This document shows positions 1 to 16,095 of a stretch of 64,000 nt of DNA, in pieces. Each line of letters starts with the position of its first letter. Within the stretch, counting starts at the first letter, position 1. The notes below the pieces were generated by a model. It saw nothing but the letters and a program-made list of their open reading frames with translations, did no database searches and was not told where the DNA came from. The translations under genes were made by a program, and so were the position numbers. This DNA comes from a bacterium (GTDB taxonomy: Bacteria; Patescibacteriota; Patescibacteriia; UBA1558; UBA10009): NCBI GenBank assembly GCA_018672055.1, contig JABHGM010000001.1, positions 608,977-672,976 of the forward strand. The letters are read 5' to 3'.

Positions 1-540
1 AAAAGATGTCCAATTGATTTTTTAGATTTAGAACTTCTTAAATTAAAGAAAATGGGTTTTAAGTATAAAGTGCTTAAAAAATATAAGGCACGTAATAAAA
101 AAACTAACTTAGTAGATATTAAAACATTTCCTTCAGATTTAGTAGCTTTACCTGATAAAATATATGGACGTCCTTATCCTGGACTTAACATTGATAATTT
201 ACCTTTCTTTGTACCAATAGCAACTCAAGCCAAAGGTAGAACTTTTATTCATGATTGGGCATATGAGAATAGATCAATCTATTTTACTGAATTTAATAAA
301 CTAGGCGCTTCAATACAATTAAATGATCAACATAGACTATTTGTAGAAGGACCTACTAAATTAACTGGCACAGAAATAATGTGTCCTTCAGCACTACGTC
401 CGGGAGCTATTTTAATTGTTGGCATGCTAGCAGCTCAAGGTGAGTCTGTTTTAAGGGATGTCTATCAAGTAGAAAGAGGCTATGAAGATTTACATAAACG
501 TTTACTTACTCTAGGAGCTAAAATAGTTAAGAAAGATTAG
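1..540 (+). CDS. murA: UDP-N-acetylglucosamine 1-carboxyvinyltransferase (MurA), C-terminal part. The ORF is open from base 1, so the 5' end lies outside the window.
   Basis: Frame is open from position 1. The C-terminal motif block (…RPGAILIVGMLAAQGESVLRDVYQVERGYEDLHKRLLTLGAKI) matches the MurA/EPSP-synthase fold C-terminus. Confidence 0.75.
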   Translation, partial: KRCPIDFLDLELLKLKKMGFKYKVLKKYKARNKKTNLVDIKTFPSDLVALPDKIYGRPYPGLNIDNLPFFVPIATQAKGRTFIHDWAYENRSIYFTEFNKLGASIQLNDQHRLFVEGPTKLTGTEIMCPSALRPGAILIVGMLAAQGESVLRDVYQVERGYEDLHKRLLTLGAKIVKKD

Positions 541-596
541 TTTTGACTAAATTGATATTTTCTGATAAAATATTGATATTATAATTTACAAAAAGC

Positions 597-1868
597 ATGG
601 AAAGTTACTCAAATTTACCAAGTGGTTACAATTTAAAAAACAAGAAAATAATACTAGGTGTTAGCCTTTTGATCCTCGCGATCATTATTTTTTTTATTGG
701 CTTAGTAGTTGGCTTAAATAAGCAATTAGATTTAGAAAAATCACCTAGTGGAATTCAAGATACAGGTAGAGTACTAAATACCGATGCTTTACCTGAATAT
801 TTAGCTAAAGATGTTAATTTTAAGCTCTTTTGGAAGGTTTGGGATATAATTAGATCTAAGTATATAGATCGTGATCAAATAACTGATGCTCAGCTATTTT
901 ATGGCTCTATGAAGGGTGTAGTAGCTGCTTTAGGCGATCCATATTCTGTATTTTTAGATCCTGTCATATCTGAGGAATTTACTGAGGAGTTATCTGGTAA
1001 GTTTCAAGGTATTGGCGCTGAAATTGGTATGAAACAAGAACGTTTAACTATTATTTCACCTTTACCTGAATCACCAGCAGAAAAAGCCGGTTTAAAGCCA
1101 GGTGATAAGGTAATGGCTATTGATGGTAATGAAACTACAGGTATATCCTTAGATGAAGCTGTTAAGCAGATTAGAGGTGAAAAAGGTACTGAAGTTATTT
1201 TAACTGTGGCTCGTGAAAATGCAGATTCATTTTTAGACATAACTATTACTAGAGATACTATTGATATTAAAAGTGTAGTTTTAGAAATGAAAGATAATAT
1301 TGGATATATTAAATTAACTCATTTTAATCAAGATACAGCGCAAGAGTTTGGTGAAATTGTTAATGAACTTTTAACTAAGTCTCCTAAAGGTGTAATTCTA
1401 GATCTTAGAAATAATGCTGGTGGCTATTTAGACGTAGCTATAGAAATAGCTGGTTATTGGGTAAAAAATGGTGATGTTGTAGTTAAAGAAAGCTTTGGTG
1501 ATGTTGAAATTGATAGAAACTATAATTCAACAGGTCAAGAGCAACTTGCTAGTTATAAGACAGTAGTAATTGTAAATGGCGGTAGTGCTTCAGCCTCAGA
1601 AATTGTAGCTGGTGCTTTACAAGATTTTGAATTAGCTAATGTAGTTGGTGAGGTTACATTTGGTAAAGGTTCTGTACAAGAACTTGAACAATTAAGTGAT
1701 GGTTCATCTGTAAAAATAACAATTGCTCGTTGGTTAACACCATTTGGTAGATCTATTGATAAAGAAGGTGTTGCACCTGATGAGATTGTTGAATTCACTG
1801 AAGAGAATTATGAAAATGAGGAAGATCCACAATTAGATAGAGCTTTAGAAATAATAAATAACGAATAA
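597..1868 (+). CDS. ctpA: Carboxy-terminal processing protease (S41 family) with PDZ domain and N-terminal membrane anchor
   Basis: PDZ-like segment GIGAEIGMKQERLTIISPLPESPAEKAGLKPGDKVMAIDG. S41 core motifs LDLRNNAGGYL and GSASASEIVAGALQD. Hydrophobic N-terminus. Confidence 0.85.
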   Translation: MESYSNLPSGYNLKNKKIILGVSLLILAIIIFFIGLVVGLNKQLDLEKSPSGIQDTGRVLNTDALPEYLAKDVNFKLFWKVWDIIRSKYIDRDQITDAQLFYGSMKGVVAALGDPYSVFLDPVISEEFTEELSGKFQGIGAEIGMKQERLTIISPLPESPAEKAGLKPGDKVMAIDGNETTGISLDEAVKQIRGEKGTEVILTVARENADSFLDITITRDTIDIKSVVLEMKDNIGYIKLTHFNQDTAQEFGEIVNELLTKSPKGVILDLRNNAGGYLDVAIEIAGYWVKNGDVVVKESFGDVEIDRNYNSTGQEQLASYKTVVIVNGGSASASEIVAGALQDFELANVVGEVTFGKGSVQELEQLSDGSSVKITIARWLTPFGRSIDKEGVAPDEIVEFTEENYENEEDPQLDRALEIINNE

Positions 1869-1870
1869 CT

Positions 1871-2314
1871 ATGAAAGTAATATTAATCGAAGATGTTAAA
1901 AGTTTAGGGGAAAAAGGCGATGTAAAGAATGTAGCTAATGGCTATGCTCGTAATTTTTTAATTCCACAAGGACAAGTTAAGAGAGCTACTAAAGAAAATA
2001 TAGCTGAATTAAATAAGCTAAAAGAGAAAAGTGAAGTAAAGGAAGCTAAAGTATTAAAAAATAAGGTAGAAGTTACTAAGAAGTTAAAAAAAGTAGCTTT
2101 AAATTTTAAAGCTAAGGCTTCAGAGACTGGTCATTTATTTGCAGCTATAAATTCAAAAGATATAGCTTCTGAACTTCTTAAAAAAGGTATTAAAGTTAAA
2201 GCTTCACAATTAGTAATTGATAAGCCTCTTAAAGAAGTAGGTAATAATGAGATAAAAGTTAAAATAAATAATGAAGAAGTGGTTTTAAATATAAAGATTG
2301 AAGCTATTAAATAA
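1871..2314 (+). CDS. rplI: 50S ribosomal protein L9
   Basis: N-terminus MKVILIEDVKSLGEKGDVKNVANGYARNFLIPQG is the canonical L9 signature. Size 147 aa. Confidence 0.9.
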   Translation: MKVILIEDVKSLGEKGDVKNVANGYARNFLIPQGQVKRATKENIAELNKLKEKSEVKEAKVLKNKVEVTKKLKKVALNFKAKASETGHLFAAINSKDIASELLKKGIKVKASQLVIDKPLKEVGNNEIKVKINNEEVVLNIKIEAIK

Positions 2315-2315
2315 T

Positions 2316-4007
2316 ATGGGTGATAAAAAAACAAAATACATATTTGTCTCAGGTGGTGTTTTATCAGGGCTTGGTAAAGGTGTTGTTGCTGCTTCACTTG
2401 GTACTCTTCTTCAAAATAGAGGATATAAGATAGGTGTTATTAAATGTGAGAACTATATTAACATAGATTCTGGTACTATTAATCCTATTGAACATGGAGA
2501 TCCTTTTTTATGTGAAGATGGCTTAGAAGCAGATATGGATCTTGGTACTTATGAAAGATTTTTAAATCAAGAAATGGGTCAAAGGAACTTTACTACCATG
2601 GGTCAGATATATAAGACAGTAATTGATAGAGAAAGATCATTTGGTTATAAAGGTGAAGATGTAGAAGCTATACCTCACGTTTCTGATGAAATAATTACTC
2701 GTATTAAAAACGCTGGTGAAGGTAAAGATATTATTATAATAGAACTGGGTGGTACAGCAGGTGAGTATCAAAATATGCTTTACTATGAAGCTTGTCGTAT
2801 TATGAAAGCTAAAATGCCAGGTAGAGTATTAAATATACATGTAAGTTATGTACCAATACCAAATCATATTGGTGAACCCAAAACAATGCCTACTCAATTA
2901 TCTATTAGAACTGTAATGAGTATGGGTATTTTACCTGAATTCTTAGTATTAAGATCAGAAGCTTTAATTGATAAGAGAAGAAAGTATTTATTAGGTTTAA
3001 AAACTAGTGTTGAGGGAGATAATGTAATAATGGCTCAAGATCTAGGCACTATCTATGAATTACCTGTAGTATTTGCTAAACAAGAATTTGATAGAAAAGT
3101 ACTTAAATATTTTAATTTACCACTTAGAACACCTAAACTTGGTGAATGGAATAAGATGGTTAAAAAGATTAAATCAGAAAAAAAGAGAAAGATTAATATA
3201 GTAATTGCTGGTAAATATATTAGTACAGGGGATTATGAATTACTTGATTCATATGCTTCCTTAATTGAGGCTATTCAACATGCTTGTTGGCATTTAAATA
3301 CAGAACTTAATTTAAGATTTGTAAATACTGAAGATATTGAAAAAGAAGGTGTTAAATTAATTAAAAAACCAGATGGTATTATTGTGCCAATTGGTTGGGG
3401 TAATAGGGGAGCTGAAGGTAAAATATCTGCTATTAAATACGCTCGTGAGAAAAAAATACCTTATTTAGGTTTGTGTTATGGTATGCAACTAGCTTGTGTT
3501 GAATTTGCTCGTAACGTAGTTGGTTTAAAAGATGCAAATTCAGTAGAAATGAATCCTGATACTCCGGACCCAATAATTCATGATATTCCTATGAATAGTA
3601 AGTATCAAGTTATAAAAGGTAAAGGAACTTCAATGAGACTTGGTTCATTTGATTGCTATTTAAAAAATAATACATTAGCTTCTTCAGTATATTTAAAGCA
3701 TAATCAAGCTGAAGAATTAAGTGATAATCAAAAAGCTAAAGAAAAAGTAACAGCAGCTGGCAATATTAAAATATCTGAAAGACATAGACATAGATTTGAA
3801 TTTAATAATGAGTATAGAGAAAAGCTAGAAGAAAAAGGTCTAATTATATCTGGTACTTCTCCTGATAACTTCTTTGTTGAAGTAATTGAATTACCTAAAT
3901 CTATGCATCCTTTCTTTATTGCTACACAAGGACATCCAGAGTATAAGTCATCACCACTTAAACCACATCCAATATTTGTTGAATTCCTTCGTGCTGGACT
4001 TAAATAA
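2316..4007 (+). CDS. pyrG: CTP synthase. The ORF track starts at 2298; the start at 2316 gives the canonical N-terminus.
   Basis: TKYIFVSGGVLSGLGKG P-loop-like N-terminus. C-terminal glutamine amidotransferase motifs (LGLCYGMQLA, GHPEYKS). ATG at 2316 follows the rplI stop. Confidence 0.9.
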   Translation: MGDKKTKYIFVSGGVLSGLGKGVVAASLGTLLQNRGYKIGVIKCENYINIDSGTINPIEHGDPFLCEDGLEADMDLGTYERFLNQEMGQRNFTTMGQIYKTVIDRERSFGYKGEDVEAIPHVSDEIITRIKNAGEGKDIIIIELGGTAGEYQNMLYYEACRIMKAKMPGRVLNIHVSYVPIPNHIGEPKTMPTQLSIRTVMSMGILPEFLVLRSEALIDKRRKYLLGLKTSVEGDNVIMAQDLGTIYELPVVFAKQEFDRKVLKYFNLPLRTPKLGEWNKMVKKIKSEKKRKINIVIAGKYISTGDYELLDSYASLIEAIQHACWHLNTELNLRFVNTEDIEKEGVKLIKKPDGIIVPIGWGNRGAEGKISAIKYAREKKIPYLGLCYGMQLACVEFARNVVGLKDANSVEMNPDTPDPIIHDIPMNSKYQVIKGKGTSMRLGSFDCYLKNNTLASSVYLKHNQAEELSDNQKAKEKVTAAGNIKISERHRHRFEFNNEYREKLEEKGLIISGTSPDNFFVEVIELPKSMHPFFIATQGHPEYKSSPLKPHPIFVEFLRAGLK

Positions 4008-4016
4008 TATATTACT
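3973..4016 (+). repeat. Copy 1 of a 44-bp direct repeat: last 29 nt of pyrG plus 15 nt downstream
   Basis: TATTTGTTGAATTCCTTCGTGCTGGACTTAAATAATATATTACT recurs at 5917-5960 with a single mismatch. Confidence 0.85.
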
Positions 4017-4042
4017 AATATATAATAATTTAGTTAAAAAAT

Positions 4043-5149
4043 ATGGGTAGTGAGCAACCAAAAATTGAGACAATAGAGGGTCAATCAGATAGTAATATAT
4101 CTGAGGAAGATATTAAAAATTTTAAAAAGCCAGAATCACCTGAGCTTGTAGACGAAATGATGGAGAGTGTAACTGAAGATGAGAAAAAAGCACTAATAAA
4201 TATTAACGAACAGCTTCCTAGTAGTGTAAAAGCACAAATTCTTGCAGGAGTTAAAAATAACATTCAAATTTTAAAAGAGTTTGGAAACAATATAGGTGAA
4301 AAGATTGATTGGGACAAAGTAGATAAAAAGAAATTAATTGCTTTAGGCATATATGGAGCTGGTGCATTAATGGGTGGTGTTGCAGATAATGTTGAAGCTG
4401 AAGATTCCAATGATGGACTTGATTCTGATTTTATTAAAGGTACTTTATCATCTTCAATTAGCAATTTTGAACAGATTGATGGATTATCACAGGAAGAGGG
4501 TAGTCTATTTATAAGAAAAGCAATAGCTTTAGCTGAAGTAAATGATATGGATAGATTGAATTATGGATTTGCCGTGAATGAAATGGAATCATGGGTAAAA
4601 TATTCTCATGAAAATAATGTTTCGATGCAACAGTTTGAGTATGGCTTAGATGAGATTGTTGCTAAGTTTTCTGAACCTGAGAATAAAGAAGGTAGTGATG
4701 ATCAAGAATCTGCAGAATTTAATAAATACGAAGACATGACAGCTGATTTACCAGAGACAGGAGAATTAGAGTTTAATGATAATTTTTCTGAATATGAAAA
4801 GATGCAAATACAGGAATACTATGATGTTAATGTAGGGACAGTTAATGAATTGACTAAACTGTTGACAGAATGGGAAGCTAAATATGGATATAAATCTAAT
4901 TTTGCTTCATTTGAAAATAATGTAAAAGATAGGGTAGATTCAATTATTAGTGAATTAAATGATATAAAAGATGGAGTACAGAGATCTGATTATAAAATAG
5001 AAGTAAGTATTAGTAGTGTAGGTGGTAATCCTTCTAGATTGAAAGCTGAAGGAATAATGAATATAGTTGAGGCTAAGAGTCATTTATTAAGTGATAGTGA
5101 AATAATTGAAAAACTTTTTGATGATATGAAAAAAGAGACAGGAAGGTAA
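4043..5149 (+). CDS. Hypothetical acidic protein (368 aa) inside the repeat-bounded insert
   Basis: Long ORF rich in D/E with no recognisable catalytic motif. Own terminator downstream. Confidence 0.5.
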   Translation: MGSEQPKIETIEGQSDSNISEEDIKNFKKPESPELVDEMMESVTEDEKKALININEQLPSSVKAQILAGVKNNIQILKEFGNNIGEKIDWDKVDKKKLIALGIYGAGALMGGVADNVEAEDSNDGLDSDFIKGTLSSSISNFEQIDGLSQEEGSLFIRKAIALAEVNDMDRLNYGFAVNEMESWVKYSHENNVSMQQFEYGLDEIVAKFSEPENKEGSDDQESAEFNKYEDMTADLPETGELEFNDNFSEYEKMQIQEYYDVNVGTVNELTKLLTEWEAKYGYKSNFASFENNVKDRVDSIISELNDIKDGVQRSDYKIEVSISSVGGNPSRLKAEGIMNIVEAKSHLLSDSEIIEKLFDDMKKETGR

Positions 5150-5170
5150 TAGTATAAAGATATTTTTTAA

Positions 5171-5200
5171 AAGCTTTATCGCTAATGATAAGGCTTTTTT
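5171..5200 (+). terminator. Rho-independent terminator after the 4043-5149 gene
   Basis: Hairpin AAGCTTTATCGC…GATAAGGCTT followed by TTTTTT. Confidence 0.5.
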
Positions 5201-5264
5201 GAATATTTTATGCGATTGGTAATTTAATAGCCATAAACTATATTTTCTTTAGTTATTTGTATAT

Positions 5265-5293
5265 TTGACAAAATAATGTAAATATGGTAGTAT
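5265..5293 (+). promoter_or_regulatory. Putative sigma-70-type promoter for the 5352 gene
   Basis: TTGACA, 17-bp spacer, TAGTAT. Followed by an AAGGAA RBS ahead of the ATG at 5352. Confidence 0.4.
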
Positions 5294-5351
5294 ACAGTAT
5301 TAGGGTAATGCACTTTAATAAATAAACATAGTAAATCAAAAAAGGAAAATA

Positions 5352-5756
5352 ATGAAATATTTTATTTCTATTCTAATAGTTATGGTTAACTTATCTACCA
5401 TAAATGCGCAGAAAGAAACCATGACATGCAATGAGATTCTTAGCTTCACTACAATAATTAACAGGACTATTGAGATTGAAAATAATGAATATAAAATGTA
5501 TGCAATCTTGCAAGTTCCTGTTTCTGAAAACGAGTGGCTTCTTGAGCATGGATATGCTTTAGACGAAATTGTTTATGTAAAAGGGTTTGGTAAAAGTGAT
5601 AATTTAACACTAACAAGAGAAATCGCTACAATGGACGCAAGAGGAAATGCAGCTTGTCTCGGATATGAGGAAATAAGAATCAATCAAACCGTGAAAAAGG
5701 ATTCTTGGCAAAAAAATAAAAGAATGATAGATAAATTATTATTTTGGAGAAAATAA
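5352..5756 (+). CDS. Small secreted protein (134 aa) with predicted signal peptide; hypothetical
   Basis: N-terminus MKYFISILIVMVNLSTINAQ resembles a Sec signal peptide. RBS present. Strong terminator immediately downstream. Confidence 0.5.
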   Translation: MKYFISILIVMVNLSTINAQKETMTCNEILSFTTIINRTIEIENNEYKMYAILQVPVSENEWLLEHGYALDEIVYVKGFGKSDNLTLTREIATMDARGNAACLGYEEIRINQTVKKDSWQKNKRMIDKLLFWRK

Positions 5757-5783
5757 TACGTCATTATTTCAATAATTGTTAAT

Positions 5784-5815
5784 CCGGCTAATAAATTTAT
5801 TAGCCGGGTTTTTTC
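5784..5815 (+). terminator. Rho-independent terminator
   Basis: Perfect hairpin CCGGCTAATAAATTTATTAGCCGG followed by GTTTTTTCT. Confidence 0.75.
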
Positions 5816-5916
5816 TATTAAAAACTGATAAATCTAATTATTATTATGTATTGATATTATATTCATATTATTGTAATATATGTTCATATATAACAAATAA
5901 AATATCTGAAAGACTA

Positions 5917-5960
5917 TATTTGTTGAATTCCTACGTGCTGGACTTAAATAATATATTACT
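5917..5960 (+). repeat. Copy 2 of the 44-bp direct repeat of the pyrG 3' end
   Basis: 43/44 identity to 3973-4016. Lies in non-coding DNA upstream of the 6059 gene. Confidence 0.85.
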
Positions 5961-5974
5961 TATATTGAATAATA

Positions 5975-6003
5975 TTGACATTTCACAAAGCTTAAGTTAG
6001 TAT
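5975..6003 (+). promoter_or_regulatory. Putative promoter for the repeat-protein gene
   Basis: TTGACA, 17 bp, TAGTAT, with TATATA just downstream. About 55 nt before the ATG at 6059. Confidence 0.35.
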
Positions 6004-6058
6004 ATAACTTAAGTTTTCTTACTTATTGATTGTTTAATTATTGTTAAGTTAGTCAAAT

Positions 6059-7861
6059 ATGGAAAATAGTGGTGAAAAATTTTTACACCAAAAAGATCCT
6101 AAATTACACGTTAGTGATTTTGTTGAACACGAGCAATCTAGAAAGAAGAGATCAAGTCAAGAAACATCACAAAAGCCTGTTGATAAGATTTCTGATTGGT
6201 TAGAAGTTATTGAAAAAACTCATATGGGTCATGAAGATGACCCTCGTGTTTTAGAACGTCTTAAAGATTATTATCATAACCAGCATGTTATTAAACCAGA
6301 TGATGTTCCAGAAAGCTATTTTGAAAATCAGAGAAGATTAGCTAGAGAACAAGGGCATGGTGATGTTGAAGTTTCAGATATAGATAAACAACAATTAACT
6401 GAAGCAATTATTTCAGATCAACGTTCTACTCTTGATAATTGGATAAATTATTACACTTCTTCACATTCAGAAAGTTTTCCTACTTGGTCTAAGCATTGGT
6501 CATTTAATGGCATGTTGAAATTATCAAATTATGATAAGGAAAAACATAAATTTAATAAAAGAAGTAAAGATACTGTAGCTCCTTTTCCAGATTTAAATCG
6601 TGAAGCTTTAGCTCATGTAGTTAATGCAATAGTGAAACAAGTTAAAGATGTAAAAGTGAAAGAAGCTAAAGATAAACAAGTTAAAGATGAAGATACACTA
6701 GATATACAGAAGGATCCAGAATTTGAAAAATTACTTCAAGATGCTAATTTTGCTAAACTATATGCTTATGCAATTGAAAAGGTAACTCCTGCTAAGGAAA
6801 GTGAATTATTAAGCACTAAAGGTGAATGGATTAAATATGATAAAGATTCAGATCATATGCCATTAGTTAATTCAATTCAAGGTCATGGTACTGGTTGGTG
6901 TACAGCTGGAGAATCAACAGCTGAAAGTCAGCTAAAAAATGGTGACTTTTTTGTTTATTATTCTCAAGATAAAAAAGGTGATTTTAAGACTCCTAGAGCA
7001 GCTATTAGAATGAATGGTAATGATATAGCTGAAGTTAGAGGTATAGCTCATGAACAAAATTTAGATCCATATATTAATGATACAGTAGACGAAAAATTAA
7101 AAGATTTTCCAAATGGTGAAGCGTATAAAAAGAAAACAGCTGATATGAAAAGATTAACTGAAATTGAAAATATTTTAAAAAAGGGACGAGAATTAGATAA
7201 AAATGATTTGAGATTTTTATATCAAGTTGATGATACAATAGAAGGATTTGGCTATCGTGATGATCCTAGAATAGAAGAAATTATAGAAGAAAGAGATAAA
7301 AAAAGTGATTTATCTCAAATTTTTAATATTGAAAAAAATAAGATTAGTATAACTAAAAATGAAGCGATTAATAACGAAGATATTGTTTATCATTATGGTG
7401 GTCTTTATCTAACCGGCTTAACTTCACTAGAAGGTTTAAAATTACCGGAAACTGTTAATGGTGATTTAGATCTAAGAGGTTTAACTTCAGCAGAAGGTTT
7501 AAGATTGCCAGAAACTGTCAATGGTAATTTAAATCTAAGCGGCTTAACTTCAGCAGAAGGCTTAAAACTACCAGAAACTGTCAATGGTAATTTAAGTCTA
7601 ATCAGCCTAACCTCAGCAGAAGGCTTAAAATTTCCAGAAACTGTCAATGGTAATTTAAATCTAATCAGCTTAACTTCAGCAGATGGTTTAAATCTCCCAG
7701 AAACTGTCAATGGTGGTCTTCATCTAACCGGCTTAACTTCACTAGAAGGCTTAAAACTGCCAGAAACTGTCAATGGTTTTATTTATATAGGAGGCTTAGT
7801 AGAGGCAGAAATATCAGATTTAAAAAAAAGTGATAAAGTTTTCATGGTTAAAGAAGGTTGA
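6059..7861 (+). CDS. Large hypothetical protein (600 aa) with six C-terminal 20-aa leucine-rich (LRR-like) tandem repeats
   Basis: Repeats LTSxEGLKLPETVNGxLxLxG occur six times. The N-terminal ~440 aa are non-repetitive. Confidence 0.6.
   Translation: MENSGEKFLHQKDPKLHVSDFVEHEQSRKKRSSQETSQKPVDKISDWLEVIEKTHMGHEDDPRVLERLKDYYHNQHVIKPDDVPESYFENQRRLAREQGHGDVEVSDIDKQQLTEAIISDQRSTLDNWINYYTSSHSESFPTWSKHWSFNGMLKLSNYDKEKHKFNKRSKDTVAPFPDLNREALAHVVNAIVKQVKDVKVKEAKDKQVKDEDTLDIQKDPEFEKLLQDANFAKLYAYAIEKVTPAKESELLSTKGEWIKYDKDSDHMPLVNSIQGHGTGWCTAGESTAESQLKNGDFFVYYSQDKKGDFKTPRAAIRMNGNDIAEVRGIAHEQNLDPYINDTVDEKLKDFPNGEAYKKKTADMKRLTEIENILKKGRELDKNDLRFLYQVDDTIEGFGYRDDPRIEEIIEERDKKSDLSQIFNIEKNKISITKNEAINNEDIVYHYGGLYLTGLTSLEGLKLPETVNGDLDLRGLTSAEGLRLPETVNGNLNLSGLTSAEGLKLPETVNGNLSLISLTSAEGLKFPETVNGNLNLISLTSADGLNLPETVNGGLHLTGLTSLEGLKLPETVNGFIYIGGLVEAEISDLKKSDKVFMVKEG
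7396..7790 (+). repeat. Six in-frame 60-bp tandem coding repeats with a duplicated lead-in
   Basis: Units start at 7418. The first and sixth units, and the GGTGGTCTT(T/C)ATCTAACCGGC lead-in before them, are near-identical. The antisense ORF 7405..7710 is a repeat shadow. Confidence 0.85.
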
Positions 7862-7870
7862 CATTTTATT

Positions 7871-7904
7871 AAAACTGAGTTAATATATTACTCAGTTTTA
7901 TTGT
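7871..7904 (+). terminator. Rho-independent terminator of the repeat-protein gene, abutting the tRNA
   Basis: Perfect inverted repeat AAAACTGAGT(taatatatta)ACTCAGTTTT followed by ATTGTT. Confidence 0.6.
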
Positions 7905-7978
7905 TCGGAGGTCGTCTAACGGTAGGACACCTGGTTTTGGTCCAGGCAATAGGGGTTCGATTCCCTTCCTCCGAGCCA
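7905..7978 (+). tRNA. tRNA-Gln (anticodon UUG), CCA encoded
   Basis: Folded by hand. The 7-bp acceptor stem TCGGAGG/CCTCCGA pairs. D-arm GTCT-AACGGTA-GGAC carries the GG. Anticodon stem CCTGG/CCAGG encloses loop TTTTGGT, giving anticodon TTG. T-arm AGGGG-TTCGATT-CCCTT is followed by discriminator G and CCA. Confidence 0.8.
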
Positions 7979-8170
7979 AATAATTTATGCTATAATACTA
8001 GTATATTAATCCACTAATCATTTTTATATGGCTAAAGGAAATAACTCACACAAAAAAGAGAAAAAGAAACCTAAGAAAAAGGATAAGAAATAGATTATAT
8101 TCTCTTTTTGAGTCAAATAAAAGATCATCTATTAAATTAGGTGATTTTTTGATTTATATTTGAATAATGA

Positions 8171-8199
8171 TTGACTTAGTAGTAATAAGATGATATATT
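8171..8199 (+). promoter_or_regulatory. Strong sigma-70-like promoter with extended -10
   Basis: TTGACT, 17 bp, TGaTATATT. About 50 nt upstream of the 8250 ATG, which has an AGGAG RBS. Confidence 0.55.
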
Positions 8200-8249
8200 C
8201 ATTTATTGTTCATTTTATTAATCAGTCACAAATTATTTAGGAGACCATA

Positions 8250-8495
8250 ATGAGTGAAAAAAGAGATATGATAGATGGTAAATGGTATAAACTTACACCA
8301 CCATCGGTTATAGGTGGAAAAAGTTATTCTCTTGTTTGCTGTGAGTATAAAGATCTAAATCCAAAGTATCCAAATGATTATATTGTAAAAGGTATATCAG
8401 AAGGTGGAACTGAACTTGAAAGTTTTATCTTACGCTTTGGAGATAAAGGTGTATGTGTAGAACTAGCAGAACCACCAACTCAAGAATCAAATTAA
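8250..8495 (+). CDS. Hypothetical small protein (81 aa)
   Basis: Good RBS (AGGAGACCATA-ATG), dedicated promoter and terminator. No recognisable domain. Confidence 0.5.
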   Translation: MSEKRDMIDGKWYKLTPPSVIGGKSYSLVCCEYKDLNPKYPNDYIVKGISEGGTELESFILRFGDKGVCVELAEPPTQESN

Positions 8496-8521
8496 GAGTA
8501 GCTGAATAAGCTTATTACTTA

Positions 8522-8547
8522 AGACTTCCTTCGGGAGGTCTTTTTTT
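8522..8547 (+). terminator. Rho-independent terminator
   Basis: Hairpin AGACTTCC-TTCG-GGAGGTCT followed by TTTTTTT. Confidence 0.6.
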
Positions 8548-8562
8548 AACCTAAATAAAAAA

Positions 8563-8589
8563 AACCGTCTTTAATTATCTGACGGTTTT
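8563..8589 (-). terminator. Conserved terminator module T1 of paralog A. An A-tract precedes it and a T-rich run follows.
   Basis: AACCGTCTTTAATTATCTGACGGTT hairpin. Nearly identical to 9749-9775 and related to 16062-16081. Confidence 0.6.
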
Positions 8590-8615
8590 GATATAAATGA
8601 TATTTGATTAAAGTG

Positions 8616-9011
8616 TTACTTTATTACAAATTCAATATTTATCTGGTCCGTAAATTTACCTTTGCTTTCATATAATATTCCAACAGAAATTATTACATTT
8701 TCATTCCAAGCTTTTTCTAAACCTTTAAAAGCTTTATCTGTTATTACAGTATTTGAAAATCCATAATATTCTCTTTGTTCAGTAGTTAGATGAATAGTTA
8801 CATGTCCTTTGTCTATTAACTTGTATACTATATCTAAGTCTATAATAAACTTTTTTAGCATACGAGGTGTAATAACATTTAACATGGTATTGATAGCGTC
8901 TGATTTATCTTTATCTACATCCGTGATTATTTCGCTAATTTTACCAAGCTTTTTTGATCTTTTTTGAATAACATTCATTAAATAATTATTTTGTAATTTA
9001 TCGGTCTCCAT
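8616..9011 (-). CDS. Small-protein family member A (131 aa); function unknown
   Basis: Homologous to the 9786..10196 and 16096..16461 products (shared YY/…LEKAWNENVII block). RBS AAAGAGG present. Confidence 0.6.
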   Translation of the reverse strand: METDKLQNNYLMNVIQKRSKKLGKISEIITDVDKDKSDAINTMLNVITPRMLKKFIIDLDIVYKLIDKGHVTIHLTTEQREYYGFSNTVITDKAFKGLEKAWNENVIISVGILYESKGKFTDQINIEFVIK

Positions 9012-9032
9012 GATTATTCCTCTTTATTGTTT

Positions 9033-9093
9033 TATATGTGCAGTTTTTATACCTTATTACGCATTTATTATTTTGTCAATAATATATGTTATA
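9033..9093 (-). promoter_or_regulatory. Conserved ~75-bp upstream module P1 with TTGACAAAATAAT and TATAAAA elements
   Basis: Near-identical to 10222-10283 (upstream of paralog B). Contains TTGACA and TATAAA hexamers and the AAAGAGG RBS. Confidence 0.5.
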
Positions 9094-9117
9094 TTTTTTG
9101 TTTTATATAATAAAAAA

Positions 9118-9141
9118 GCTCAGCAGAAATCTCTGCTGAGC
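9118..9141 (-). terminator. Rho-independent terminator of the 9158-9571 gene
   Basis: Hairpin GCTCAGCAG(aaatct)CTGCTGAGC. On the minus strand it is followed by TTTTTTATT. Confidence 0.6.
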
Positions 9142-9157
9142 ACTTAGGATATATTGT

Positions 9158-9571
9158 TTAGCCTCTTAACAATGAGCTAAATTCAATTTCACCATAACGT
9201 GAGTTTGTTTCGTATCGAAGCTTTGCTTCAACATGTGTGTCCAATGAATTTTTATCACGTTTTTTACCTGTTGAAATATTGCCATGCACTAAGATGTACC
9301 ATACACCTTTGCCCATGTTTGTTAACGTGATTACGGATTTAACTATGAGAAAGTACTTTTTATGTAAATCTACAATACCAAGTTTTTCCATCTCCACCCC
9401 AGGTCCAAAATTTTCTGTATATGTGGTAACTGGATCACCGGGAGTGAATTTAAACCATAATGGATCTACAAATATGATTTTATTTTGATGAATAAAGGCT
9501 GCGCAGATCTCAGATCTACGTGGGCCATTATCAATTTTTGGCATAACATGTGGTGTTCTTGGTGTTGTCAT
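9158..9571 (-). CDS. Hypothetical protein (137 aa) with visibly higher GC than its surroundings. The track ORF extends to 9610, but the RBS supports a start at 9571.
   Basis: AAAGGAG lies 8 nt before the ATG giving MTTPRTPHV…; the upstream MCPYKR extension has no RBS. Codons are richer in G/C than neighbouring genes. No domain recognised. Confidence 0.5.
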   Translation of the reverse strand: MTTPRTPHVMPKIDNGPRRSEICAAFIHQNKIIFVDPLWFKFTPGDPVTTYTENFGPGVEMEKLGIVDLHKKYFLIVKSVITLTNMGKGVWYILVHGNISTGKKRDKNSLDTHVEAKLRYETNSRYGEIEFSSLLRG

Positions 9572-9692
9572 ACAACAACTCCTTTCTTTTTTGCGCTTAT
9601 AAGGGCACATTCCTTGTTGCTTTGTTCTTAATGAGCCACCTACCCATACAGGCAGGGATTTTGTTAACCAATACCTTATCGATTAACAGGTT

Positions 9693-9728
9693 ACTATATA
9701 CTAGCATTTATAAATTGTCAATGCTAGT
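9693..9728 (-). promoter_or_regulatory. Putative promoter with -35 inside a 7-bp inverted repeat, followed by a ~115-nt leader
   Basis: Minus strand reads TTGACA, 17 bp, TATAGT. The plus strand shows CTAGCAT(…13 nt incl. -35…)ATGCTAG. The leader up to 9572 contains GC-rich hairpin-capable segments. Confidence 0.4.
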
Positions 9729-9748
9729 TTTTAAATTTTAATAAAAAA

Positions 9749-9775
9749 GAACCGTCTTAAATTATCTGACGGTTC
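9749..9775 (-). terminator. Conserved terminator module T2 of paralog B
   Basis: GAACCGTCTTAAATTATCTGACGGTTC, flanked by an A-tract and T-rich run. About 90% identical to 8563-8589. Confidence 0.6.
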
Positions 9776-9785
9776 TGATGAAATA

Positions 9786-10196
9786 TTATTCCTTGATTTC
9801 TAGAAATACTAATTCGAATTTAATTTCTAACTTTTTCTCGTCTCTAGAAAGGTTTATGGGGAAGAATGTAAGATTAATTATTACGTTTCCATTCCATTTT
9901 TTTTCTAATAATTCAAATTTATTTTGAGTAAGGAATTTATCTTCAAAATAATATTTTCCTATATCATTACCTTCTAATACTATAGAAATTTTTTCTTTAT
10001 ATAGTAACTTCTCTAGTATACTATAGTCTTGAATAAAATCTTTTAGGTTATCTGGTGTCTTATGCAGAAAAGTTCTAATTACGTTAGATTCATATTCATC
10101 TCCCATTTTAATCATTTTTTTAACACTTTCAAGTATTTCTGATCTGGCTAGAATGGCTTCTAACAAATGTTTTTCTTTTACATCACCTATAGCCAT
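9786..10196 (-). CDS. Small-protein family member B (136 aa)
   Basis: Homologous to 8616..9011 and 16096..16461. RBS AAAGGAG present. Confidence 0.6.
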   Translation of the reverse strand: MAIGDVKEKHLLEAILARSEILESVKKMIKMGDEYESNVIRTFLHKTPDNLKDFIQDYSILEKLLYKEKISIVLEGNDIGKYYFEDKFLTQNKFELLEKKWNGNVIINLTFFPINLSRDEKKLEIKFELVFLEIKE

Positions 10197-10221
10197 GATT
10201 ACTCCTTTTTGGCTTATTTTT

Positions 10222-10283
10222 TTATATGTTCAGTTTTTATACCTTATTACTCATTTATCATTTTGTCAATAATATATATATAA
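10222..10283 (-). promoter_or_regulatory. Conserved upstream module P2, paralogous to 9033-9093
   Basis: The TTATATGT(G/T)CAGTTTTTATACCTTATTAC(G/T)CATTTAT(T/C)ATTTTGTCAATAATATAT block is shared with P1. Confidence 0.5.
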
Positions 10284-10295
10284 ATAACTAAAACA

Positions 10296-10324
10296 TTGAC
10301 AAAATAAGAGAAAAATGATAGACT
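10296..10324 (+). promoter_or_regulatory. Putative promoter of the DEAD-box helicase gene, extended -10
   Basis: TTGACA, 17 bp, TGaTAGACT. The ATG at 10332 lies ~8 nt downstream, giving a near-leaderless transcript. Confidence 0.4.
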
Positions 10325-10331
10325 CAGCATT

Positions 10332-12050
10332 ATGATTTCAAAAGACAAAATTAAAACGTTTAAAGAACTAGGTTTAAAGGAAGATATAATGAAAAGTTTG
10401 GATGATTTAGGTTTTGAAAAGCCTACACCTATTCAAGCTGAAACTATTCCTTTCATTTTAAATTCTAAAAATGATTTAGTTGCTTTAGCACAAACTGGTA
10501 CTGGTAAAACAGCTGCTTTTAGTTTACCTATTTTAAACCAAATAAGTACTAATAAAAGAAGCTTAGATGCTTTTATACTATGTCCTACTCGTGAACTAGC
10601 TATACAAATATCAAGGGATATTGAATCATATACTAAACATACTAAAGGTATTAGTGTTACTGCTGTATATGGTGGTACTAGAATAGATTTACAGATTAGA
10701 ACACTAAGAAGAGGTGTAAATATTGTAGTTGGTACACCAGGTAGAGTACATGATTTAATTAGAAGAAATGTACTTAAATTAAACAGTGTTAAATGGTTAG
10801 TTTTAGATGAAGCTGATGAGATGCTAGATATGGGGTTTAAAGACGATCTAGACGCCATTTTAGAGCAAACACCGGATACTAGGCAGACATTACTGTTCTC
10901 AGCTACTATGTCTCGTGGTGTAAGTAATATTGCTAAGAATTATATGAAAAAGGCTAAAGAGATAAGTGTTGGTAGTAGAAATACTGGTGCTGAAAATGTT
11001 ACTCATGAATATTATGTAGTTCAAGCTAGAGATAGATTTGAAACACTAAAACGTATTTTAGATTGTATTCCTGATGTTTATGGTATATTATTTTGTAGAA
11101 CTAGACGTGAAACACAAGATGTTGCTGATAAGTTAAGGCAAGCTAAGTATCAAGCAGAAGCAATACACGGAGATGTTTCTCAGAGTAATAGGACTAAGAT
11201 AATGGATAGGTTTAAGAATAAGCATATTAAATTACTAGTTGCTACTGATGTAGCTGCTCGTGGTATTGATGTTAAAGATTTAACACATATTATTAATTAT
11301 AATCTACCTGATCAAAATACTTCATATACTCATAGAAGTGGTAGAACAGGTAGAGCAGATAAGAGTGGTATAGCTATATCCATAGTTGGACCAAGAGATA
11401 TTAGAAAGATTAAAGAATTAGAAAAGGCTTTAAATAAGCCATTTGAGTATAAACAAGTACCAAGCGGTAAAGATATACATGAAAGACAAATTGATAATTT
11501 TATTGATTCAATTAAAGTATCTGATTCTGAAAAAATTGATGCCAAGTTTCTTGAAGATATTACTCATAAATTAAAAGGAGTTAAGAAAGAAGATTTAATA
11601 AAACATTTTGTTTCTAAAGAATTAAGTCATTTATTTAATGATAATCAAGGAACTCGTGATTTAAATAGTACTTTTAAAGCTAATGCTGAAAAGAGCAGAA
11701 CTTTAAATAATGCTACTTATTTAAAGATTAATTTAGGTAGAAAACATAGATTTAATATCAAAACATTATTTGCTATGATCAATTCTAGTAATAAGTTACG
11801 TGGCATGCATATTGGACAAATAGATTTACATCCAGAGTATTCTACATTTGCTGTTGAAAAAAAGTATGTATCAGAAGTAATCAATTCTTTAAATAAGAAT
11901 AAGTTTAGTAAAATGCCAGTTGAGGTTAGTGTAAGTAATGATCAAATTACTGAAGCTACAGATAATTTTTCAAGAAAAAGAAATAGAAGAAAGAATAAGA
12001 GTCCTAGAAGAAATAAAGGTAATAGAGGTGATTACAGAAGACGTAGATAA
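10332..12050 (+). CDS. DEAD-box ATP-dependent RNA helicase with C-terminal DbpA-like RNA-binding domain and basic RG/RR tail
   Basis: Motifs AQTGTGKT, PTRELA, DEAD (LVLDEADEML), SAT, HRSGRTGR. Tail NRRKNKSPRRNKGNRGDYRRRR. Confidence 0.9.
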   Translation: MISKDKIKTFKELGLKEDIMKSLDDLGFEKPTPIQAETIPFILNSKNDLVALAQTGTGKTAAFSLPILNQISTNKRSLDAFILCPTRELAIQISRDIESYTKHTKGISVTAVYGGTRIDLQIRTLRRGVNIVVGTPGRVHDLIRRNVLKLNSVKWLVLDEADEMLDMGFKDDLDAILEQTPDTRQTLLFSATMSRGVSNIAKNYMKKAKEISVGSRNTGAENVTHEYYVVQARDRFETLKRILDCIPDVYGILFCRTRRETQDVADKLRQAKYQAEAIHGDVSQSNRTKIMDRFKNKHIKLLVATDVAARGIDVKDLTHIINYNLPDQNTSYTHRSGRTGRADKSGIAISIVGPRDIRKIKELEKALNKPFEYKQVPSGKDIHERQIDNFIDSIKVSDSEKIDAKFLEDITHKLKGVKKEDLIKHFVSKELSHLFNDNQGTRDLNSTFKANAEKSRTLNNATYLKINLGRKHRFNIKTLFAMINSSNKLRGMHIGQIDLHPEYSTFAVEKKYVSEVINSLNKNKFSKMPVEVSVSNDQITEATDNFSRKRNRRKNKSPRRNKGNRGDYRRRR

Positions 12051-12074
12051 TATTAATTTAAATATATATTAAAA

Positions 12075-12099
12075 ACATTCCCATATTGGGAATGTTTTA
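12075..12099 (+). terminator. Rho-independent terminator
   Basis: ACATTCCCA-TAT-TGGGAATGT 9-bp stem followed by TTTT. Confidence 0.7.
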
Positions 12100-12162
12100 G
12101 TTTAAACTAGAATTATTAATATATTTTTGATATAGTATATCTATAATTTATATATATTAAAT

Positions 12163-12777
12163 ATGAATAGTGGAAAAGAATTAGTAACTGAATTAATAAA
12201 ACTTCAGACTAAATATACTAAAACAGATAGAGCAATTACTACACGTGAAAAGTATGAAGCTTTTTATTTAAATAAATTTGTTAAAGAATTAGATTTTAAT
12301 AATAAATTATTAAGAGAATCATTAATTGAACATGTAGGGCATTTACCAATTATTGCTACTTTTTTATACCCTCATATTGAGAATAGAGATAAAATAGATT
12401 TAGGTAAAACATTATTAATGTTAGCTATACATGATATTGGTGAAACTGAAGTAGGTGATGTTATAACATATAAGAAAACAAAAGAGCATCAAAATTTAGA
12501 AATAGCTGCTGCTAAAAATATACTTGATGAGTCATATATTGATATTTTTCAAGAGTTTGAAGATGTAGAAAGCTTAGAAGCTAAATTTGCTAAAGCTATT
12601 GATTCATTAGCTCCACTTTTACATGAGGTAGATTTACCAGATGTAACTGCAAAGAGATTTAAATATTTTGGTTTTAATGAAGAAACTATTATAAAAAAGA
12701 AAAGACCCCTTTTTATTTGGGATAGTGTGTTGCTAGGTATATTTGATTATTGTATTGAAGAATATAAAAAGATTTAA
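12163..12777 (+). CDS. HD-domain phosphohydrolase (YfbR-like 5'-deoxynucleotidase family)
   Basis: H…HD signature: HVGHLP … LAIHDIGETEVGD. Confidence 0.6.
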   Translation: MNSGKELVTELIKLQTKYTKTDRAITTREKYEAFYLNKFVKELDFNNKLLRESLIEHVGHLPIIATFLYPHIENRDKIDLGKTLLMLAIHDIGETEVGDVITYKKTKEHQNLEIAAAKNILDESYIDIFQEFEDVESLEAKFAKAIDSLAPLLHEVDLPDVTAKRFKYFGFNEETIIKKKRPLFIWDSVLLGIFDYCIEEYKKI

Positions 12778-12852
12778 AATTAATTAGAATATATATAATA
12801 TATCACTAATTAGCGATATTTATATATATTTTTTTAATAAAGTATACATACT

Positions 12853-12888
12853 TGACAATATTCTATAAATATGCTATTATAGTATAAT
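12853..12888 (+). promoter_or_regulatory. Strong promoter driving the GC-rich module
   Basis: TTGACA, 17 bp, TATTAT, with a second TATAAT 2 bp later. The ~120-nt leader carries hairpin TTACTGTAA-TGTT-TACAGTAA at 12923-12946. Confidence 0.55.
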
Positions 12889-12986
12889 GTTTTTTGAAAA
12901 TTAAATAATTTAGAAATCAATGGTTACTGTAATGTTTACAGTAAAATAAGTAGTTTATTAGAAAGTAAGAAACACGTAAAACGTTT

Positions 12987-13039
12987 ATCCAAAGGAGATA
13001 AAGATGAGTAAATATCCAAAGGAGATAAAGATGAGTAAA
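12987..13039 (+). repeat. 27-bp tandem duplication spanning the RBS and start codon
   Basis: ATCCAAAGGAGATAAAGATGAGTAAA occurs twice (12987-13012 and 13014-13039), separated by one T. It creates two in-frame ATGs 27 nt apart. Confidence 0.85.
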
Positions 13040-13432
13040 AAAAATGAATACCGTGATGGTGCAACAATAGTAGCTAAAGAGTCAGCTTGGACTTTTTGGA
13101 GATTTTTACCACTATTACTTCTTGTTATTGTAGTAGTACTTCTGGTCGTTTGGAGTCTGAAAAGTACTGGTATCATCGGAAAGGATATTGAACGTGAAGT
13201 CGTTCAACACAGCCAGCAGTATGTTGAGTCAAAACAGGCTAAATTGCAGAATCTGTATACCAAGTATGTTGAATTACAAACAAAGGCAACAGAGGCTGAA
13301 TTTGCCGGTGTAACAGAACTGGTTGATGTATATTATGCACAGCAGAAAGCAATTTTGGTTCAGATGCGCCGAGAGGTAACAAACATTCCCTCTCATCAGG
13401 TTCCACCAGAAGTTCAGAAGCTCTTACAATAA
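13031..13432 (+). CDS. Membrane-anchored coiled-coil protein, hypothetical. The alternative start at 13004 is created by the duplication.
   Basis: Single TM helix (FLPLLLLVIVVVLLVVW) then a helical, Q/E-rich region. Noticeably higher GC than the flanking genes. Confidence 0.55.
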   Translation: MSKKNEYRDGATIVAKESAWTFWRFLPLLLLVIVVVLLVVWSLKSTGIIGKDIEREVVQHSQQYVESKQAKLQNLYTKYVELQTKATEAEFAGVTELVDVYYAQQKAILVQMRREVTNIPSHQVPPEVQKLLQ

Positions 13433-13459
13433 AAAACTCAAATGATAAGGAGAAATGAA

Positions 13460-14083: not shown

Positions 14084-14105
14084 ATTTACTGACCATAAAT
14101 AATAA

Positions 14106-14146
14106 AACCCGGCATGTATTCTGTATGTGTCGGGTTATTTTTTTAA
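14106..14146 (+). terminator. Rho-independent terminator between the convergent 13460-14083 gene and typA
   Basis: AACCCGGCAT…GTGTCGGGTT hairpin followed by ATTTTTTTT. Confidence 0.6.
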
Positions 14147-14160
14147 TCTAAAAATATTTT

Positions 14161-15951: not shown

Positions 15952-15962
15952 AATTTAAGGGT

Positions 15963-15988
15963 TTAAATAAAACCGCCTCAACAGGCGG
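15963..15988 (-). promoter_or_regulatory. Terminator-like hairpin plus U-tract inside the typA 5' leader (possible attenuator)
   Basis: Minus strand reads CCGCCT-GTTG-AGGCGG then TTTTATTTAA. It lies between the putative typA promoter and its ATG. Confidence 0.4.
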
Positions 15989-16007
15989 AACCTTTAATAA
16001 CTCAGGA

Positions 16008-16036: not shown

Positions 16037-16061
16037 GTGTAATAGGCGTTTGTATTAAAAA

Positions 16062-16081: not shown

Positions 16082-16095
16082 TGATTTGATAGTAT

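Follow-up and report, generated by a model that had tools for sequence, protein, structure and literature searches.

Duplicated gene ends at the borders of islands and insertion hotspots at the side of tRNA genes are classical features. Element e14 and phage 21, located in icd, carry a substitute 3′ end for their target and leave the icdC pseudogene behind, and the streptococcal cis-mobilizable elements (CIMEs) are devoid of an integrase. Tycheposon-type islands of marine cyanobacteria form tRNA-linked variable islets or tandem arrays of small elements. For rhs loci and for type VI secretion system (T6SS) effector–immunity arrays of Vibrio cholerae, 3′-end displacement through homology-facilitated illegitimate recombination was put forward as a model: incoming DNA anchors homologously in a conserved gene, joins illegitimately on the opposite side, and the old gene tail moves downstream (PMC5361080). 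Furthermore, transformation of Streptococcus pneumoniae yields merodiploids in which incoming DNA bridging two chromosome copies duplicates the flanks (PMC3784515), and SegB, a free-standing GIY-YIG homing endonuclease, is encoded in the tRNA gene cluster of phage T4 (PMC2330249, PMC13096335). Here, we analyze a 1.9-kb segment that carries two genes, p368 and p134, directly behind the CTP synthase gene pyrG of a UBA10009 bacterium (Patescibacteriota; assembly GCA_018672055.1, contig JABHGM010000001.1, positions 608,977 to 672,976 of the forward strand). This whole stretch of 64,000 nt is called the window, and coordinates refer to it unless another locus, cited by its L number, is named.

A copy of the pyrG 3′ end stands at each border of the segment, hereafter insert 1. 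We propose that insert 1 arose through a recombination-driven duplicative insertion (3′-end displacement) at an insertion hotspot, a reading of the anatomy of the locus to which we assign a probability of about one half. The comparative data support well an ancestral junction made of pyrG, a spacer of ~60 nt with the promoter of tRNA-Gln, and tRNA-Gln itself, which two separate insertions opened in this lineage. The features at the pyrG end are as follows:

2316–4007, plus strand: pyrG (CTP synthase), intact, with Pfam matches to CTP_synth_N (2.7e-87) and GATase (1.8e-32)
3767–3783, plus strand: source of a 17-nt pyrG fragment, pyrG −240 to −224
3972–4021, plus strand: repeat copy 1, with the functional end of pyrG (from −35 through its stop) and 14 nt beyond
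5898–5914, plus strand: pseudo-pyrG fragment a, an exact 17-nt copy of pyrG −240 to −224, out of frame with fragment b
5916–5965, plus strand: repeat copy 2 or pseudo-pyrG fragment b, non-coding, running directly into the ancestral downstream spacer

The stretches 3972–4016 and 5916–5960 are identical at 44 of 45 nt on the same strand, which bears out the preliminary description of a 44-bp repeat of the pyrG end with one mismatch and a spacing of 1.9 kb. Two matches were found in the real sequence and none in dinucleotide-preserving shuffles (0/100). Without gaps, the repeat extends to 50 nt (48/50, 96%; 3972–4021 against 5916–5965, pyrG −35 to +14); nominally it reaches 58 nt at 93%, the final 8–13 nt being all A/T and thus open to chance matching. 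Its composition had been given as 29 nt of pyrG and 15 nt downstream. Since pyrG ends at 4007, it actually comprises the last 35–36 nt of the gene, stop included, and 9–14 nt beyond. That the repeat duplicates the pyrG 3′ end and leaves pyrG itself intact was rightly seen, and the left junction of insert 1 falls at ~4021/4022. A structured RNA or terminator in the repeat was considered and ruled out (fold z ~−0.4); there is no Rfam family at this place, and the Rfam scan of the window returned tRNA only.

Fragment a enlarges the duplication. A single nucleotide separates it from copy 2, which follows on the same strand, in the order that the two pieces have in pyrG. Just one other exact 17-mer is common to pyrG and the whole window on both strands, so that chance adjacency of this fragment to copy 2 has a probability below ~1e-3. 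In the simplest reading of the sequence, the original duplication spanned at least 254 nt (−240 to +14), and the dead pyrG copy would later have lost ~188 nt internally; a templated filler insertion is an alternative origin for the 17-nt piece. Further decayed pyrG sequence was sought in 5757–5897 and nothing beyond the 17-mer was found. The two copies agree at 96–98% of their positions; in relatives, ~10/36 positions of the pyrG end are different. The duplicated sequence therefore came from the lineage's own pyrG.

Both repeat copies recur in independent data. The ENA assembly ERZ27250245 has the identical structure, the NCBI metagenome-assembled genome GCA_018651045.1 differs by one single-nucleotide polymorphism in 14,346 nt (99.993%), and the JGI metagenome 3300024258 is identical over 13,803 nt. 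As the same junctions are present in these three assemblies, the repeat is no assembly artefact, which settles a check that the preliminary description had called for. The organism is strikingly clonal: comparison of window positions 59–15658 with L145, L156 and L001 gives 0–1 differences in ~14 kb among the ENA, JGI and NCBI assemblies. More than 100 collection blocks list identical pyrG, p368 and p600 proteins (p600 is the next gene downstream).

The ancestral junction is preserved in relatives. By its pyrG relatives, the window belongs to Parcubacteria/Komeilibacteria-like Patescibacteria, and the closest relatives available, L055 (a GTDB representative) and L065 (JGI), have pyrG genes 88% identical to that of the window. 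A conserved block murA-ctpA-rplI-pyrG ends with pyrG and has the same order upstream in ~20 relatives. In L055 and L065 the pyrG stop is followed by a 66-nt spacer and tRNA-Gln, and within the spacer the elements of a consensus promoter (TTGACA-17-TATTAT) enclose an inverted repeat. This empty site, which the preliminary description had suggested to look for, identifies the 1.9-kb segment as a lineage-specific insertion: p368-p134 is absent behind pyrG in both genomes, in agreement with the earlier claim of an insert. More broadly, none of the genes that follow pyrG in the window (p368, p134 and p600, up to the DEAD helicase) follows pyrG in the ~20 syntenic relatives. Downstream of copy 2 the window continues with these features:

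5972–6030, plus strand: tRNA-Gln promoter/spacer copy A, upstream of p600, with TTGACA at 5975–5980, TAGTAT at 5998–6003 and the inverted repeat CTTAAGTTA/TAACTTAAG
6059–7861, plus strand: p600 (insert 2), with a conserved N-terminal domain and tandem repeats of 21 aa (63 nt); GC content at third codon positions (GC3) 0.128, native
7846–7904, plus strand: tRNA-Gln promoter/spacer copy B, directly upstream of tRNA-Gln, with TTGACA at 7858–7863
7905–7978, plus strand: tRNA-Gln(UUG), found by ARAGORN and with 60 bits in Rfam, the ancestral downstream neighbor of pyrG

Copies A and B are ~86% and ~85% identical to the L055 spacer (scores 71 and 75; the shuffle maximum for copy A is 32) and ~80% identical to each other, where the score is 33 and shuffles reach 29 at most. 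The window thus displays three partial copies of one junction: the pyrG end, then p368 and p134; the pseudo-pyrG end and spacer, then p600; and lastly spacer and tRNA-Gln. The p600 gene, which is missing from the L055/L065 spacer, is predicted to be driven by the duplicated tRNA-Gln promoter, and its TGA stop (7859–7861) lies inside the −35 hexamer of copy B, the copy driving the tRNA. A relative age of the two events is well supported by the sequence comparison: insert 1, with repeats at 96–98% identity, would be the younger one and insert 2, with promoter copies at ~80% and native GC3, the older one.

The inverted repeat in the −35/−10 interval differs between the promoter copies (CTTAAGT...ACTTAAG and ACTGAGT...ACTCAGT), and these compensatory changes suggest a conserved palindrome for protein binding. 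An ATT(A/G)AATAA-like motif is located upstream of the −35 element in both copies. In L055, the terminus of pyrG is tandemly duplicated over 12 nt (GGGATTAAATAA-CAA-GGGATTAAATAA, 8753–8782) just before the tRNA promoter; together with the motif of the window, this duplication may represent a still older, decayed remnant of a pyrG tail. Directly behind tRNA-Gln, a 21-codon, extremely basic micro-ORF (MAKGNNSHKKEKKKPKKKDKK; open reading frame, ORF) is present at 8028–8093 and kept in L055 (8958–9020).

The repeats of p600 comprise ~8 tandem 63-nt units (7332–7835) encoding a leucine-rich-like 21-aa motif (LTSAEGLKLPETVNGNLNLSG). More than 2000 homologues of ~520–920 aa occur in unrelated contexts in Patescibacteria and DPANN, their length probably varying through the number of repeats. 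Two other views of this gene were rejected. It is no tandem duplicate of p368, to which it has no similarity (E 0.33), and it is no mobile nuclease gene: its homologues bear precomputed HNH and Grx2_C labels, which are artefacts of the repeats and fall below threshold, and are found in housekeeping contexts.

The distance from pyrG to tRNA-Gln varies widely in the family. It is +46 in L073, +66 in L055 and L065 and ~+75 in L005, rising to +405 (L067/L068), +537 (L030), +969 (L075) and +1630 (L015); the tRNA is inverted at +44 in L016, +920 in L077 and +1726 in L004. In the window the distance is +3898, and the intervening content differs per lineage. In L015 and L077 bipA comes shortly afterwards, so that pyrG, tRNA-Gln and bipA form the conserved backbone; the interval from pyrG to bipA has a length of ~10 kb in the window, 5 kb in L015 and ~1 kb in L077. 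From this comparison of loci, the pyrG/tRNA-Gln junction is a recurrent insertion hotspot across the family.

The inserts of relatives are also bracketed by copies of local sequence. A 46-nt repeat, formed by the 3′ part of the promoter and tRNA nt 1–10 and 98% identical, encloses a small GIY-YIG gene in L067/L068 (Pfam 6e-13). In L030, the intact tRNA is preceded by a 5′ pseudo-tRNA-Gln, and a GIY-YIG gene (Pfam 2e-16) occupies the space separating the two. In L075 a gene for a secreted protein separates a promoter with a tRNA 5′ stub from a second promoter with tRNA, and in L077, with its inverted tRNA, three tRNA-Gln 3′ ends bracket two small inserts. Three unrelated Patescibacteria genomes show repeats around homologues of the window genes: a direct repeat of ~105 nt, 27 nt of it perfect, around a p368 homologue in L153 (4841–4950, 6215–6335), a 32-nt repeat around a p600 homologue and the next gene in L151 (4915–4946, 8357–8388), and a 25-nt repeat around ahpC and a p368 homologue in L147 (1105–1129, 3240–3264). 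The repeats in L153, L151 and L147 are local intergenic sequence. By inspection, no motif is common to the flanking repeats of the window, L068, L017, L153, L151 and L147, and their lengths differ. Since neighboring inserts duplicate different local sequences of different length, one site-specific core is unlikely.

The GIY-YIG genes of the relatives form a group of their own:

Loci downstream of pyrG with a GIY-YIG gene: L017, L030 (9824–10293), L034, L044, L049/L117, L067/L068 (L068 9827–10170), L091 and L109–L111

Their ORFs are GIY-YIG-only, ~80–115 aa long, and overlap with their end a same-strand tRNA gene (Gln, Ser or Lys) in its 5′ part. A tRNA 5′ copy of 12–46 nt with 95–100% identity was detected just upstream of the ORF in 8/8 tested loci. 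From their sequence, they look like cassettes inserted in tRNA genes, which rebuild an intact tRNA at the cassette 3′ end; literature searches returned no description of this arrangement. Two details concern single loci. In L030 (9860–9930), the 5′ pseudo-tRNA-Gln is interrupted by a palindromic, GC-rich element of ~70 nt, which resembles a miniature inverted-repeat transposable element in its AT-rich spacer. GW2011_GWF2_45_11 (GenBank, 2015; L003/L069) is without 37 nt of tRNA-Gln and 22 nt of the GIY-YIG gene compared with the near-identical JGI loci L067/L068. As a result, no tRNA was detected there; the missing nucleotides may have been lost in assembly or truly deleted.

The cargo of insert 1 comprises two genes with these features:

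4043–5149, plus strand: p368, 368 aa, acidic (isoelectric point 4.3), GC3 0.176
5170–5201, plus strand: terminator-like hairpin and U-run after p368 (−14.6 kcal/mol, z −5.9)
5265–5293, plus strand: promoter-like site of p134, TTGACA-17-TAGTAT with TG, strong; a homologous promoter is kept in L146
5352–5756, plus strand: p134, 134 aa, with an N-terminal hydrophobic signal-like segment, by inspection only
5781–5820, plus strand: intrinsic terminator after p134, with its hairpin at 5781–5810 (z −5.7) and a U-run

The acidic 368-aa protein and the signal-bearing 134-aa protein of the preliminary description are thus present, the signal of p134 being judged by inspection. A promoter and a terminator had been attributed to each gene. 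Both terminators and the promoter of p134 stand; for p368 there is a weak 9/12 promoter match, located inside the repeat. As p368 begins 36 nt past the stop of pyrG, no terminator separates the genes and the promoter match is weak, p368 is probably co-transcribed with pyrG by read-through. With its own promoter and terminator, p134 is predicted to be an autonomous transcription unit.

The p368 protein is probably all-helical, with one hydrophobic helix at about residues 95–117. Its all-helical AlphaFold2 model is of low confidence (mean predicted local distance difference test score, pLDDT, 57), and a structure-based search for its function was dropped because this model is too weak for a fold search. 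Among 1.8 billion representatives, 19 remote homologues with 26–39% identity align over the full length; a word-indexed search returned the self match only. Judged by these alignments, p368 belongs to a real, rare and fast-evolving family. The homologues examined follow ahpC (L147) or clpB (L153/L154), or lie on a 2-kb contig without visible upstream gene (L155), and none of them adjoins pyrG or a p134 homologue. For p134, one homologue was found (55%, L146); it has a promoter and a terminator of its own, and its flanks on a short contig are different. No Pfam, PHROG or NCBIfam family matches either protein. Since the homologues of p368 and p134 occur apart and in unrelated contexts, the 1.9 kb consists of two independent modules and does not recur elsewhere as a coherent element. 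The GC3 of p134 (0.267) is the third highest of 62 genes and 2.6 standard deviations above the mean (window median 0.143), a composition consistent with foreign origin. The five highest values of the window belong to p142 (13004), p150 (9158), p134, p121 (16096) and p213 (13442), all orphans of the interval between pyrG and the pilus genes (4000–16500).

How could such a structure arise? In the proposed displacement, the incoming DNA would carry the 3′ portion of a pyrG gene followed by p368 and p134. On the left it would pair homologously within pyrG. On the right it would join illegitimately inside pyrG near −240, and the old pyrG tail would be pushed downstream. The recombination could be of the homology-facilitated illegitimate type or involve bridging of sister chromatids, plausibly after natural transformation, and would need no element-encoded integrase. 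Selection may shape what is visible: no more than ~20 nt lie between the stop of the essential gene pyrG and the tRNA promoter, and therefore an insertion would survive only if both were regenerated. This requirement would explain why only duplicative events are seen at the junction.

Several observations favor this reading. The empty site of the closest relatives, the origin of both copies in the lineage's own pyrG, the lineage-dependent distance from pyrG to tRNA-Gln and the high GC3 of p134 are among them. Copy 2 is contiguous with the ancestral spacer in the same orientation as in L055. The original duplication of at least 254 nt would be longer than a typical att core. The same geometry recurs with different targets (the p600 promoter, L068, L030, L075, L077 and L153). 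Lastly, there is no integrase in the insert or nearby, the sole Xer-like gene being at 55.5 kb. DNA uptake by the organism is plausible by analogy: pilB/C/M/N/O and pseudopilin genes of a type IV pilus are present in the window, and natural competence is documented, for Saccharibacteria only (PMC10633639).

Other points count against it. A donor arrangement pyrG-p368-p134 was found neither in GTDB representatives nor in JGI metagenomes or protein collections, and the best p368 homologue is only 39% identical, homologues never standing beside pyrG. A donor that shares a 98% identical pyrG end sits awkwardly with the foreign GC3 of p134, unless p134 was recent there. The sampled population has no presence/absence polymorphism: empty-site alleles were sought by exact-protein look-ups of pyrG, p368 and p600, and in each of these three look-ups the contigs read (24/24) all carried the insert, so that the event itself was not observed. 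The search for repeat copies covered the 64-kb window. It is also possible that the Xer-like recombinase, or an unsampled integrase, acted in trans.

The last point leads to the first alternative, in which insert 1 would be what is left of a site-specific integrative element after loss of the integrase, similar to a CIME and mobilizable in cis or in trans. Its attP would have included the pyrG 3′ end, and the two repeats would be attL and attR. The direct repeats with the 3′ end of a conserved gene, the regenerated and intact target, the empty site in relatives and the tRNA-adjacent location are indeed those of integrative elements. Furthermore, a chromosomal Xer-like tyrosine recombinase is present within the window, the hotspot in L077 has classic tandem repeats of tRNA 3′ ends, and an integrase adjoins tRNA-Lys in L044. 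However, neither the insert nor the region from −10 kb to +50 kb of it contains an integrase, a transposase or a phage or plasmid function. The sole recombinase in 74 kb (the window and 10 kb upstream) is the XerC/XerD-like gene at 55555–56517, beside ftsQ-ddl-alr and 50 kb away, which scores 224 bits, below the equivalog cut-offs. The absence of a recombinase from the segment, already stated in the preliminary description, thus holds, in line with the missing family matches for p368 and p134.

Comparisons across loci also disfavor such a remnant. In ~150 related pyrG loci, neither the pyrG-3′ repeat nor an integrase-bearing element at pyrG was found, and a phmmer search with a single Xer query, which could miss divergent or serine recombinases, detected one tyrosine recombinase, that of L044. 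No integrase-bearing element with the same att came to light, and the unit neither recurs elsewhere nor is absent from any of the contigs read. The 32-nt repeat core is absent from IMG/VR, blastn of 3900–6100 against phage and plasmid collections gave no match, the PHROG search yielded nothing meaningful and a search for viral relatives of the p368 family was negative; a phage or plasmid origin was ruled out on these grounds. The cargo, as described, is two unrelated orphan modules that are separate elsewhere, the −240 fragment beside copy 2 is unexpected for an att P arm, and the neighboring p600 insert uses another duplicated sequence. The preliminary interpretation of the repeat as the footprint of a decayed, site-specifically integrated element is therefore not supported, and we regard such a remnant as a live but rather unlikely rival.

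Signs of a transposon were lacking as well. There is no transposase domain, and the duplication of 50 to at least 254 nt is no short, fixed target-site duplication as for a transposon or insertion sequence; the sole inverted repeat at the insert ends is AT-rich, 28 nt long and 71% complementary. As to integrative mobile elements exploiting Xer (IMEX) at dif, there is no GC-skew switch around 4–6 kb, and by eye the repeat showed no convincing dif-like 11-6-11 motif.

A second alternative is an endogenous rearrangement. A spontaneous segmental or tandem duplication, or template switching of the kind seen in microhomology-mediated break-induced replication (MMBIR), might have copied the pyrG 3′ end and spacer; p368 and p134 would have been captured in this redundant landing pad, and the redundant copy mostly deleted. 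The three partial junction copies in a row and the templated-looking 17-nt piece at the junction would suit an endogenous process, as would the tandem paralogues with duplicated promoters that are common in the window (8541–10277, 54494–55119) and the 12-nt duplication of the pyrG terminus in L055. However, the two foreign genes demand an extra, unexplained step, which makes this scenario less parsimonious than a single duplicative insertion, and no trace of a duplicated tRNA-Gln or of a second full spacer exists beside copy 1. We consider it unlikely.

Break repair after endonuclease cleavage has been weighed as a third alternative. A GIY-YIG enzyme targeting tRNA-Gln, such as those of the sister lineages, would have cut the junction; an ectopic or foreign template would have been copied in with duplication of the flanks, and the endonuclease gene would have been lost or never resident. 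In L030 and L067/L068, GIY-YIG genes do occupy precisely the junction of pyrG and tRNA-Gln, the duplicated tRNA 5′ part flanks them in all eight tested loci, and T4 SegB drives co-conversion and segmental amplification (PMC2330249, PMC13096335). Against this, six-frame ORFs of the window and 10 kb upstream contain no GIY-YIG domain, nor did Pfam detect HNH or LAGLIDADG. Insert 1 is located at the pyrG end and not in the tRNA, and the link is by association only. The scenario is thus improbable for this insert. Lastly, a chance match or an assembly chimera of two pyrG-containing strains, imaginable in an AT-rich, metagenome-assembled sequence, is practically eliminated, the former by the 0/100 shuffles and the 17-mer count and the latter by the identical junctions in three assemblies.

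Beyond the junction, the window encodes housekeeping functions (mur/ftsW, secA/DF, aminoacyl-tRNA synthetases), the type IV pilus cluster and a VirD4-like ATPase. The last (42837–44504) is a VirD4/TraD-like coupling ATPase that has a CxxC-x17-CxxC zinc finger at its C terminus; it adjoins a 524-aa protein without family match and may be part of a Patescibacteria type IV secretion or conjugation-like system. On the minus strand at 8541–10277, the paralogues p131 and p136 encode proteins with 34.5% identity, and the GC3-atypical orphan p150 lies between them. Their promoter and 5′ regions are 94% identical over 64 nt (9024–9087, 10214–10277) and their terminators 81%, so flanks are conserved and coding regions diverged. 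At 53993–55506, three small orphan genes stand in tandem beside the XerC/D-like gene (55555–56517), with a 105-nt upstream repeat (54494–54598, 55015–55119, 79%).

The less usual aspects of this locus are its setting in ultra-small Patescibacteria, the tiny integrase-free orphan cargo and the nested, separate duplication of three different pieces of one 100-nt junction. It offers a base-resolved example of how a streamlined ultra-small genome adds lineage-specific genes beside an essential gene, which stays undamaged, by copying a gene end or a promoter. The pyrG/tRNA-Gln junction is naturally permissive and repeatedly used, and it is a candidate neutral landing site for genetics in naturally competent Patescibacteria. 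One might generalize to a recombinase-independent, target-duplicating capture of orphan genes at essential-gene/tRNA junctions in Patescibacteria, possibly seeded by GIY-YIG enzymes, a speculative extension that we regard with considerable reserve. If it were true, the pyrG and tRNA-promoter duplications, the GIY-YIG cassettes and the repeat-flanked p368/p600 homologues (L153, L151, L147) would be instances of one process, and tRNA-targeting GIY-YIG cassettes would make junctions break-prone.

How does the locus compare with the described systems? With e14, phage 21 and the CIMEs it shares direct repeats of the target 3′ end, an intact target, a dead distal tail and an empty site in relatives. 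Unlike them, it has no integrase, excisionase, replication or transfer genes, no integrase-bearing element resides at pyrG in the ~150 loci, the two cargo modules are unrelated to each other, and an extra pyrG fragment accompanies the distal copy. With tycheposon-type islets it has in common the tRNA-adjacent hotspot, small lineage-specific cargo, partial target repeats and tandem accretion (L077). However, the window duplicates the pyrG end and the tRNA promoter and not the tRNA 3′ end, and no recombinase family is linked to it.

The SegB case finds its counterpart in the GIY-YIG genes of sister lineages at the same tRNA-Gln junction, which support a break-prone, recombinogenic site. The window differs in having no GIY-YIG gene, and while the cassettes of relatives regenerate the 5′ part of the tRNA, its event took place at the pyrG end. 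The pneumococcal merodiploids illustrate a route to duplications flanking a recombination site without a site-specific enzyme; those are large and arise between existing repeats, whereas here tens to hundreds of nt are duplicated around foreign genes. Compared with the rhs and T6SS arrays, pyrG is a housekeeping enzyme gene and no polymorphic toxin, the tails are near-identical so that nothing functional is exchanged, the displaced tail is cut to 17 and 50 nt, and no donor is known. As in those arrays, an intact gene is followed by new genes and then by the old 3′ end, in the same orientation and still attached to its former downstream DNA. An integrase plays no part, and successive events, here insert 1 and insert 2, build up an array.

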